From the sequence record MH717096.1: a DNA stretch of 38,829 bases; one strand, 5' to 3'. Every line of letters begins with the position of its first letter. Positions within the stretch are counted from its first letter, which is position 1. Positions 20,751-29,350 of the stretch are shown here, one piece after another. Under the pieces are notes generated by a model. That model saw only the letters and a list, made by a program, of their open reading frames with translations, was not told where the DNA came from and did no database searches. The DNA is from Escherichia phage N7. The position numbers were made by a program, and so were the translations under genes.

Positions 20751-20969
20751 TTTTTACCCGTCATGGAGTGCGGCTGTCAACGATCTGACGCGAACCATGA
20801 CGAACTGTGAATCTACGGAAGGCTTGATATTCAGGGGATTTTGCGGACTGGCACGGATGGTGGCGAACTGATAAATGGTGTCCCCTGCAGACATCTACTT
20901 GGCGCGGCAGGGGATTGATTGGAATGGTGTTTTTTAGATGTGAAAAATATTTTACCCGCTATTTTACCC
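20715..20969. other. candidate attP (arm-type 8-mer repeats flanking a tRNA-3'-end-like core)
   Basis: Five copies of TTTTACCC/GGGTAAAA at 20715, 20730, 20752, 20950, 20962 flank a 15-nt core at 20876-20890. Confidence 0.55.
20876..20890 (-). other. attP core candidate: minus strand reads CTGCAGGGGACACCA (tRNA acceptor 3' end + CCA)
   Basis: Plus strand TGGTGTCCCCTGCAG; its reverse complement matches my recollection of the 3' terminus of E. coli tRNA-Arg(CCU) argW; same orientation as int. Confidence 0.5.
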
Positions 20970-21164
20970 ATTGGCGCGGCTTAAGAGCTTATTTTTGAAT
21001 TCGCAATGGTCACGATATAACCATCTTGCTCGCCCGTGGATAACTTTGGCTTTTGGCAGGTCGCCGGACTTAATCCGGTCATAGATGAAGGTCTTACCGA
21101 AGCCAGTATCAGCCATGATGAATTTCAAATCAACCAGTGAATCAGGTTGTAGTTCGTGTTGCAT
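20964..21164 (-). CDS. xis: excisionase / AlpA-family HTH protein
   Basis: 66 aa; ...TFIYDRIKSGDLPKAKVIHGRARWLYRD fits the AlpA/Xis HTH pattern; upstream of int in the same orientation. Confidence 0.7.
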   Translation of the reverse strand: MQHELQPDSLVDLKFIMADTGFGKTFIYDRIKSGDLPKAKVIHGRARWLYRDHCEFKNKLLSRANG

Positions 21165-21208
21165 GAGTGCTATCTCCGAATAGGGAATCGAACCTGCAAA
21201 TCAGGCAA

Positions 21209-21231
21209 TAAAAAACCGCCATCAGGCGGCT
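21209..21231 (-). terminator. rho-independent terminator (minus strand)
   Basis: Minus strand GCCGCC-TGAT-GGCGG followed by TTTTTT; downstream of the small 55-aa ORF. Confidence 0.55.
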
Positions 21232-21389
21232 TGGTGTTCTTTCAGTTCTTCAATTCGAATATTGGTTACGTCTGCATGCGCTATCTGCGCCCATATCATC
21301 CAGTGGTTATAGCAGTCGTTGATGTCCTCTGCTTCGATAACCCTGTCGAATGGCTCTCCATTCCATTCACCTGTGACTCGGAAGTGCAT
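21222..21389 (-). CDS. hypothetical small protein (55 aa; not in ORF track)
   Basis: ATG at 21389 with SD GGAGATGA; translates MHFRVTGEWNGEPFDRVIEAEDINDCYNHWMIWAQIAHADVTNIRIEELKEHQAA; ends within the terminator. Confidence 0.35.
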   Translation of the reverse strand: MHFRVTGEWNGEPFDRVIEAEDINDCYNHWMIWAQIAHADVTNIRIEELKEHQAA

Positions 21390-21465
21390 TTATCATCTCC
21401 ATAAAACAAAACTCGCCGTAGCGAGTTCAGATAAAAGAAATCCCCGCGAGTGCGAGGATTGTTAT

Positions 21466-29084: not shown

Positions 29085-29164
29085 AGTTAAGACATCTTAA
29101 ATAAACTTGACTTAAGATTCCTTTAGTGGATAATTTAAGTGTTCTTTAATTTCGGAGCGAGTCT
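29085..29164. promoter_or_regulatory. OR operators with pRM/pR
   Basis: Operator-like TTAAGACATCTTAA and AATTTAAGTGTTCTTTAATT; pR TTGACT (29107-29112) and GATAAT (29129-29134). Confidence 0.6.
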
Positions 29165-29350
29165 ATGTACAAGAAAGATGTTATCGACCACTTCGGAACC
29201 CAGCGTGCTGTAGCTAAAGCGTTAGGCATTAGCGACGCAGCAGTCTCTCAGTGGAAGGAAGTCATCCCAGAGAAAGACGCCTATCGACTGGAAGTCGTTA
29301 CAGCTGGCGCCCTGAAGTATCAAGAAAGCGCTTACCGCAAAGCGGCATAA
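29165..29350 (+). CDS. cro: Cro
   Basis: 61 aa MYKKDVIDHFGTQRAVAKALGISDAAVSQWKEVIPEKDAYRLE..., near-identical to recalled P22 Cro. Confidence 0.9.
   Translation: MYKKDVIDHFGTQRAVAKALGISDAAVSQWKEVIPEKDAYRLEVVTAGALKYQESAYRKAA

Follow-up and report, generated by a model that had tools for sequence, protein, structure and literature searches.

A conserved copy of the argW T-arm ahead of xis in the TorI-attP-IntS recombination module, a candidate control site

Directly upstream of the xis gene of Escherichia phage N7 lies a short copy of the T-arm of the tRNA gene argW, and the same element precedes xis in a broad set of relatives. It is a conserved and previously uninterpreted part of a well-known recombination module, and the reading of the leader given here is new. 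Comparison of lineages indicates that this box is probably a small control site and not debris. As to its function, we tentatively propose that the T-arm copy has been kept as a selected cis-regulatory site for xis, which would be bound by the recombination proteins of the module itself.

A T-arm fragment in the recombination region

The window, by which we mean the whole stretch of 38,829 nucleotides that was analysed (MH717096.1), comes from a P22-like (Lederbergvirus) phage. Over the region considered here its nearest relatives are phages Louie, HF4s, Sf6, and HK620. Read along the minus strand, on which all features described below lie, the order is a 55-aa ORF, a terminator, TATTGCCTGATTTGCAGGTTCGATTCCCTATTCGGAGATAGCACTC, xis, two GGGTAAAA repeats, the core CTGCAGGGGACACCAT, and int. 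The 55-aa ORF (21222..21389; phrog_676, E = 5e-39), a homologue of the lambda orf55 region upstream of xis, is the last gene ahead of the xis leader, and a stretch with 94% identity to lambda 29091-29296 covers window positions 21400-21196, this ORF included (bases 1-205 when the minus strand of 21400-20700 is the query). A terminator scan placed an intrinsic terminator directly 5' of the leader (21206..21232; stem AAGCCGCC/GGCGGTTT, with the stem part at 21232-21213, plus a T-run), and terminator-like hairpins with a T-run also lie 5' of the conserved box in Citrobacter-type, Enterobacter, and other lineages. The xis gene itself (20964..21164) encodes a 66-aa TorI-type recombination directionality factor (RDF) that is 98-100% identical to proteins named TorI or excisionase, and its counterparts in K-12, HK620, and Sf6 are annotated torI, hkaC, or gene 18. 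Its Shine-Dalgarno sequence (SD), GGAG (21174..21177), is preceded by a conserved C, the alignment consensus being cGGAGAU.

Downstream, two direct GGGTAAAA repeats sit at the xis stop codon (20950..20969) and are kept in all relatives. They are probably IntS arm-type (P-arm) sites, a reading that draws on the TAAA motif common to the P' arm-type sites (Panis 2010, PMC2951348). The attP core region (20875..20898) consists of a left core arm with a degenerate T-loop remnant, GTAGATGT (20898-20891), and then the 16-nt identity segment, CTGCAGGGGACACCAT (20890-20875), which is the core published for KplE1 (Panis 2010, PMC2951348) and Kapi1 (Pick 2022, PMC8787464). An imperfect inverted repeat, GATGTC and GACACC, surrounds TGCAGGG and suggests this heptamer as the presumed 7-bp overlap region, in which case the left arm of attB ends at the last base of the fragment described below. 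Transfer of the MG1655 positions of Panis 2010 (PMC2951348) by exact sequence search located the five TorI sites of the P' arm (20780..20870), namely I1 CAGTTCGC (20870-20863), I2 CAGTCCGC (20850-20843), I3 CAGTTCGT (20807-20800), I4 TGGTTCGC (20797-20790), and I5 CAGATCGT (20787-20780). After I5 comes the -35 hexamer of PintS, TTGACA (20780-20775), and then int, which encodes an IntS-type tyrosine integrase (19557..20714, taking as start the same ATG as in K-12 intS); the mechanical int ORF reaches up to 20750.

The fragment, TTGCAGGTTCGATTCC (21184..21199), matches argW exactly over linear positions 46-61 and spans the end of the variable loop, the 5' strand of the T-stem, the T-loop, and the first two bases of the 3' strand of the T-stem. 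An earlier sequence-only reading of this DNA had pointed out the minus-strand 18-mer 21201-21184, ATTTGCAGGTTCGATTCC, as a T-stem 5' strand plus T-loop just 5' of the xis ribosome-binding site, and had read it as the piece of tRNA-Arg directly 5' of the attP core; all of this was borne out. Against the annotated E. coli argW (L007 241-315, ...GGGCTAATTGCAGGTTCGATTCCTGCAGGGGACACCA), 17 of the 18 bases agree, the mismatch being the second base (T, vs A in argW), and the exact run within the 18-mer is 16/16 (21199-21184). The same argW T-arm sequence appears as a primer in Panis 2012 (PMC3509656). The 15-nt attP core CTGCAGGGGACACCA (20890-20876) corresponds to argW linear positions 61-75, so that fragment and core tile the 3' half of the tRNA with an overlap of 1 nt and a separation of 293 bp, with xis between them; as had been claimed, removing about 290 bp would rejoin that half.

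The likeness extends past the generic T-loop consensus GGTTCGATTCC, to which the match could have been confined: five further nucleotides (TTGCA; T-stem and variable loop) agree with argW specifically. From this extension only CA is kept in other genera, and the robust tRNA-like part is 13 nt long. We considered chance likeness as an explanation: GGTTCGATTCC is a very frequent motif, and another argW match of 14 nt, located within a coding region elsewhere in the window, shows that such matches can arise. When the window was shuffled 300 times with dinucleotides preserved, however, matches to argW positions 1-61 usually reached a maximum length of 10-11 nt and at most 14 nt, against the 16 nt observed. 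The fragment moreover lies 293 bp from, and in register with, the core of the same tRNA, and is kept in distant relatives. Given the shuffles and this conservation, we rejected a chance match, the probability of which we regard as negligible. ARAGORN predicted no tRNA in the window, and an Rfam search at E <= 10 returned no tRNA match in 20700-21450 and nothing reaching the gathering score of a family; hence the element is a fragment of a tRNA and not a tRNA. Taken together, we infer that the left (T-arm) half of attB in argW is present here a second time, as a copy derived from the tRNA.

Occurrence and conservation of the box

The window carries the same TorI-attP-IntS module, associated with integration at argW, as KplE1 (CPS-53), HK620, and Sf6: a TorI-type Xis, CTGCAGGGGACACCAT between xis and int, five TorI sites, PintS, and an IntS-type integrase. 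The fragment is likewise shared, and precedes the TorI-type xis in all three. The leader containing it is base-for-base identical in HK620 and Sf6, without any sequence difference, while in K-12 KplE1 the argW-like sequence is again found before torI, the upstream gene differs, and homology starts at the T-run. Of the complete E. coli genomes, 1,399 carry at least 80% of the stretch from orf55 through box and torI to the core. In 80 loci from IMG/VR that encode an identical Xis, the upstream contexts are of three unrelated kinds, all of which converge on TTTTTATT(G/A)CCTGATTTGCAGGTTCGATTCC. Existing database records read this spot in different ways: HK620 has a "phage integration" promoter and a cII-binding site, TTGCCTGATTTGC (21196..21208 in the window, by alignment), Sf6 has pI and a "boundary sequence", and CUS-3 (CP000711) has TTGCAGGTTCGATTCC as both attL core and attR core, with the record ending on it. 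A T-arm copy before torI is not mentioned in the accessible papers on the module (PMC2951348, PMC3509656, PMC8787464, and PMC8844411), the first three of which map sites on attL and attR, although a description elsewhere is conceivable.

With an alignment of TorI proteins as the starting point, we gathered 25 loci in genomes and several hundred in viral contigs. They come from Escherichia, Citrobacter, Enterobacter, Serratia, Pantoea, Edwardsiella, and Hafnia-type sequences as well as metagenomes. Across these lineages, CAGGTTCGATT(C/T)CC stands 6-7 nt 5' of the xis SD in surroundings that have diverged. This defines a conserved 14-nt box, CAGGTTCGATTCCC in the window (21183..21196; family consensus CAGGTTCGATTYCC), which here ends 6 nt before GGAG. 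To compare conservation we used 11 lineages, no two of which share 93% or more identity in Xis; a box with at most two mismatches was the criterion for entry, which introduces an ascertainment bias. Within this set of diverged Enterobacterales lineages, GTTCGATT and the C at +10 are invariant. Mean pairwise identity is 0.86 for the 14-nt box, compared with 0.36 in the 5' flank and 0.33 in the spacer; at synonymous third positions of xis it is 0.63, and there the third base is invariant in only 10 of the 36 codons with an invariant amino acid. Within E. coli, variants of the box occur as singletons only, and the flanks have common polymorphisms. A box so much better conserved than its flanks and the synonymous sites of xis is not what a neutral remnant would look like, and these comparisons, in lineages selected to carry at most two mismatches, indicate that the box is under purifying selection and is not a neutral relic.

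Two further features of the box bear on its nature. It is present in tandem copies in some loci (L134-L136 and L131), and tandem duplication is common for protein-binding sites. In addition, a frequent C-to-T variant, GATTTCC, alters a position that is invariant in tRNAs, which implies that the box is not being recopied from argW. The box is missing in several apparently functional relatives, namely the Klebsiella-type loci L190-L207, Cronobacter (L147/148), and Dryocola (L019), in which the leader runs from ...GCCTG straight into GAG.... Covariation between the box and the target tRNA offered no contrast, as an argW-type core is found in all TorI-family relatives recovered, even at about 60% identity. 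A scan of viral contigs for GGTTCGAATCC-N5-9-GGAG-N5-10-ATG gave 120 matches; 107 of them are genuine tRNA genes, and not one of the remaining 13 precedes a xis-like ORF.

Origin of the copy and competing readings of the spot

The sequence-only reading had proposed that a longer attP identity segment was split when xis and its flanks, about 290 bp, were inserted, which would leave the fragment as a neutral remnant. Such a split would account for the exact tiling of the tRNA 3' half with its 1-nt overlap, and the box-less leaders fit a discrete indel at this place, some 25 nt long. However, the attP core has a T-loop remnant of its own: to its left, most relatives read (a/g)TTCGATGTA followed by TGCAGGGGACACCA, and the window GTAGATGTC followed by TGCAGG, so that in the relatives the left side of the core is the T-loop hexamer TTCGAT in tRNA register and then three mismatches. 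Positions 54-62 of the tRNA are thus represented twice, an arrangement that a clean split cannot produce. Conservation of the box far above neutral expectation and its tandem duplication in some phages also argue against a remnant, and among the recovered relatives none was found with the two pieces joined and xis elsewhere. We considered CUS-3 as a xis-less relative with joined pieces and rejected it, since its record is merely cut at the box: the prophage end in UTI89 is 100% identical to CUS-3, and there the "attR core" is followed by torI, the true core, and dsdC. It is thus probable that the end of the CUS-3 record was set at the box, before torI and the true attR are reached. We also rejected the idea that the whole leader is a diverged copy of the tRNA 3' half (the box, then TGCAGGGGACACCAT against spacer, SD, and ATG), as semi-global alignment of the remaining leader to the remaining tRNA in 16 lineages was no better than for shuffled sequences (p = 0.04-0.5, not significant). 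A neutral, split attP is hence quite improbable, and an origin in which xis entered a single attP is not supported. Overall, the earlier observation is confirmed and its interpretation holds in part, being right about tRNA origin and tiling. Its other suggestion, a relic secondary att site, may stand as an account of origin, in that the copy ends at the joint of arm and overlap, but not as a description of the present element, which now behaves as a selected one. The copy ends exactly at the junction of the attB left arm and the overlap, the pattern expected of a recombinase-made joint or an att duplication, and it may have arisen as an old joint of this kind (an attL-type junction or a secondary site) or by duplication of the att region. 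A box that still works as an alternative crossover site, recombining with the 16 nt of argW at attL to give the ends annotated for CUS-3, is more doubtful again, and we consider it very improbable. In a lysogen, the 16-nt direct repeat TTGCAGGTTCGATTCC would enclose everything except xis, and the CUS-3 record marks exactly these repeats as attL and attR cores. Taken as an att core, the box has a left arm that is a perfect attB arm; 7 nt on, GAGATAG agrees with GACACCA at 4/7 positions and is also the SD. Yet the core with experimental support is CTGCAGGGGACACCAT and not the box (Panis 2010; Pick 2022), recombination at the box would truncate argW and strand xis, UTI89 has torI and the true core beyond it, and outside Escherichia the repeat shared with argW is only about 13 nt. 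The in vitro excision assays used a 135-bp attR substrate starting at the 3' end of torI (Panis 2012, PMC3509656), and the box, which lies outside this substrate and is missing in several apparently functional relatives, is hence dispensable for recombination itself.

Two other explanations place the function of the spot in gene expression. According to the HK620 record, which has a "promoter, phage integration" and a "cII protein bind" feature exactly here, and to the Sf6 record with its pI, this would be a lambda-type pI promoter activated by cII, in which the first four bases of the fragment are the second TTGC, the rest is spacer, and the tRNA likeness is incidental. The position fits, as the spot is immediately upstream of xis, and the cII box of lambda pI (TTGCGTGTAATTGC) occupies the homologous place after the same orf55 terminator. 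Homology to lambda covers orf55, the terminator, and the cII box of lambda itself, and stops at the second TTGC. On the other hand, the window has TTGC-N5-TTGC where lambda has N6, TTAC or TTTC takes the place of the first TTGC in K-12 and many prophages, and in other genera the repeats are different or absent (TTGC..TTCC; none in Edwardsiella and Hafnia) while the box is invariant. A consensus scan found no -10 element, and none is conserved across lineages; more generally, a promoter scan of the leader for a sigma-70 promoter of xis itself found none. Promoter spacers are normally free of sequence constraint, and a 12-nt T-loop match that falls in register with TTGC by accident is very unlikely. 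With the wrong cII spacing, a polymorphic repeat, and no -10, the promoter reading is weak and a protein-binding site fits better; we judge pI to be improbable, and the comparative data do not support the pI/cII annotation of HK620 and Sf6. The main rival to an operator, although itself unlikely, is a role in translation, in which the box would act within the xis mRNA leader by pairing with the initiation region, sequestering the SD and limiting Xis synthesis, the tRNA likeness then reflecting origin only. The proposed pairings are UUCG with CGGA, or AUUYCC with GGAGAU plus GGUU with AACC. A constant distance of 6-7 nt between box and SD in nearly all lineages would suit this role, as would the terminator directly upstream together with the lack of a sigma-70 promoter, which make a read-through leader RNA plausible. 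Citrobacter-type leaders form an SD-sequestering hairpin (-10.5 to -11.1 kcal/mol, z = -1.4 to -2.3), a consensus alignment yields the same weak helix, the C-to-T variant GATTTCC pairs better with GGAGAU, and GGAGGU variants still pair through G-U wobble. The E. coli-type leader, that of the window included, folds no better than shuffled sequences, however (-6.8 kcal/mol, z = 0.04), and the predicted pairings vary by lineage without compensatory covariation. We thus rejected a conserved RNA structure, as minimum free energy folds differ by lineage (z from -2.3 to +0.1), the consensus reaches only -2.1 kcal/mol, and no covariation was seen. Structural constraint alone does not predict eight consecutive invariant bases either, and it leaves unexplained both the identity to the T-arm and its stop at the crossover boundary.

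Possible control of xis by IntS and TorI

The reading we tentatively prefer, a cis-regulatory site bound by recombination proteins of the module, could involve either of two proteins or both. The box may be bound by the catalytic/core-binding domain of IntS, which must recognise the same sequence as the B arm of attB, or by TorI, whose footprinted sites share GTTCG (as in I4, TGGTTCGC). Occupancy of the box, 6 nt from the SD and just past the terminator, would then feed back on xis expression, and such feedback could help to set the Int/Xis ratio and with it the choice between integration and excision. For IntS, the pertinent observation is that the box equals argW up to the base where the identity segment begins, i.e., an IntS core-type B arm if the overlap is placed correctly. 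The left core arm of attP in the family is TTCGATGT, in register with the T-loop, and TTCGAT thus recurs at three expected or proposed core-type contacts of IntS: the B arm, the C arm, and the box. The C arm varies within the family (TTCGAT, TTAGAT, or GTAGAT), and core-type Int sites are usually degenerate; recognition by Int alone therefore does not obviously explain nine invariant positions.

For TorI, the box contains the pentamer GTTCG (21193-21189), which is among the pentamers reported for TorI sites (Panis 2010, PMC2951348), and AGGTTCGA fits the core G(T/A)(T/C)CG of the 8-bp sites, with GGTTCG present in both the box and I4. TorI binds five such sites in the P' arm, with cores GTTCG, GATCG, or GTCCG, and represses PintS via I4 and I5 (Panis 2010, PMC2951348). 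The loci L132 and L133 read CAGTTCGA, a 7/8 match to I1/I3, and in several lineages a second GTTCG or GTCCG ends at the C of cGGAG and abuts the SD. The window itself has a single TorI-like site and no phased cluster, the second pentamer or tandem box being confined to some lineages. Scored with a crude weight matrix derived from the five known sites, AGGTTCGA ranks 811th among the 77,644 8-mers of the window, and this place, only within the top 1%, does not strengthen the idea of a TorI operator. The ATTYCC part of the box has no conserved equivalent in TorI sites, which leave its invariant ATT.C unexplained. The authors of the KplE1 studies concluded that excision is controlled mainly via expression of the RDF, which makes a control site in the torI leader plausible. 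A more specific form of this proposal is possible but less than probable: the box would be a decoy attB half-site, a T-arm mimic read by IntS, possibly with TorI, that throttles xis, or, in an RNA variant, a T-arm mimic that controls translation.

The TorI-attP-IntS module is a well-studied model for how a prophage stays integrated or excises, and the box, a short sequence in the excisionase leader that is strongly conserved and duplicates the integration target, offers a concrete candidate control point within it. If the decoy reading is true, recombination directionality would be regulated by mimicry of the chromosomal target site. The comparison also corrects two annotations, the pI/cII site of HK620 and Sf6 and the end of the CUS-3 prophage, which probably omits xis and the true attR. 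For genome scanning, the case cautions against taking every tRNA fragment close to attP for a piece of an att site or a relic.

Several known systems resemble the element in part. The CUS-3 att-core annotation (CP000711) concerns the same 16 nt, TTGCAGGTTCGATTCC, there read as a crossover core. Like attL (B-O-P') and the secondary att sites of lambda-type integrases, the box presents a B arm that stops at the boundary with the overlap and continues into unrelated phage DNA; unlike such joints, it is internal to the phage genome at a distance of 293 bp from the real core, lacks a convincing overlap or right arm, falls outside the in vitro attR substrate, and is conserved like a functional site. 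Lambda pI occupies the same place, after the orf55 terminator and before xis, and the annotations of HK620 and Sf6 were made by analogy with it. The lambda cII box (TTGC-N6-TTGC) overlaps the start of xis, whereas here N5 separates the two repeats, the first of them is polymorphic, other genera do not keep the repeat, and a -10 is lacking; int has its own promoter beyond attP, and the T-arm box conserved in this family is absent from lambda. RDFs that double as transcriptional regulators include P2 Cox, 186 Apl, and P4 Vis. TorI likewise represses PintS through GTTCG-type sites, and such a pentamer stands here right before the gene of TorI itself; the leader, however, has a single site instead of a phased cluster, and this site matches the known ones poorly outside the pentamer.

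Box-bearing, box-less and tandem leaders

Across xis leaders, the conserved 14-nt tRNA T-arm-like box (21183-21196, minus strand) belongs to a discrete segment that is either there or missing: box-less leaders (L019 from Dryocola, and L150-L152) read either TTTTTATTGCCTG followed by GAGGAAAGCATG or ACGCCTG followed by GAGATAATG, and they differ from box-containing ones by the absence of about 25 nt, comprising box and spacer, between GCCTG and GAG. Some IMG/VR phages instead carry the box in tandem, namely L134, L135 and L136, where it lies about 45-15 nt upstream of xis, and L131; the tandem forms are CAGGTTCGATTCCCGT-CAGGTTCGATTCCC, with a period of 16 nt, and GTTCGATTCCCGC-GTTCGATTACC, with a period of 13 nt.

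The adjoining TTGC repeat has been annotated in HK620 as the cII-binding site of the pI promoter. Its first TTGC (21205-21208, minus strand; examined also in L011, L040 and other loci) is TTAC in K-12 KplE1 and in roughly one-fifth of the sampled E. coli prophage loci, and TTTC in one, variants that count against a functional cII site.

Further matches and an ORF downstream of int

Codons 3-5 of xis contain, in inverted orientation, an 8-mer similar to a TorI site, TAGTTCGT (21150-21157, plus strand), at a distance of 37 nt from the box pentamer. Because these codons are not alike in other lineages, we consider this sequence resemblance to be probably coincidental. On the strand opposite the xis leader and start codon region, Rfam reports the enterobacterial sRNA STnc130 below threshold (21114-21241, plus strand; E = 0.3, with 24 bits where the gathering score is 55); this match is most likely noise.

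A second partial copy of the tRNA gene argW, the 14-nt GCTAATTGCAGGTT (12860-12873, minus strand; linear tRNA positions 41-54), is antisense within the DNA-transfer (ejection) protein ORF at 11675-13681 (phrog_770). A 14-nt argW match arose in just 1 of 300 shuffles, and the allele of the ejection-protein gene around GCTAATTGCAGGTT is shared, at the DNA level, with phage HZ41 alone; the match probably reflects chance.

Directly downstream of int, a 171-aa ORF with a hydrophobic N-terminus (18697-19212, minus strand) gave no more than a weak match to phrog_13688 (unknown function). This ORF occupies the spot where P22-like phages often have lysogenic-conversion genes.

The end of the CUS-3 record compared with UTI89

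In the CUS-3 GenBank record (CP000711), the attL and attR cores are both set to TTGCAGGTTCGATTCC (L004 1393-1408 and L005 1-16), and the record lacks xis because it stops at this core. The prophage end in UTI89 (L209), which is 100% identical to that of CUS-3, continues into torI, the CTGCAGGGGACACCAT core and dsdC; xis and the true attR were probably left out of the CUS-3 record.
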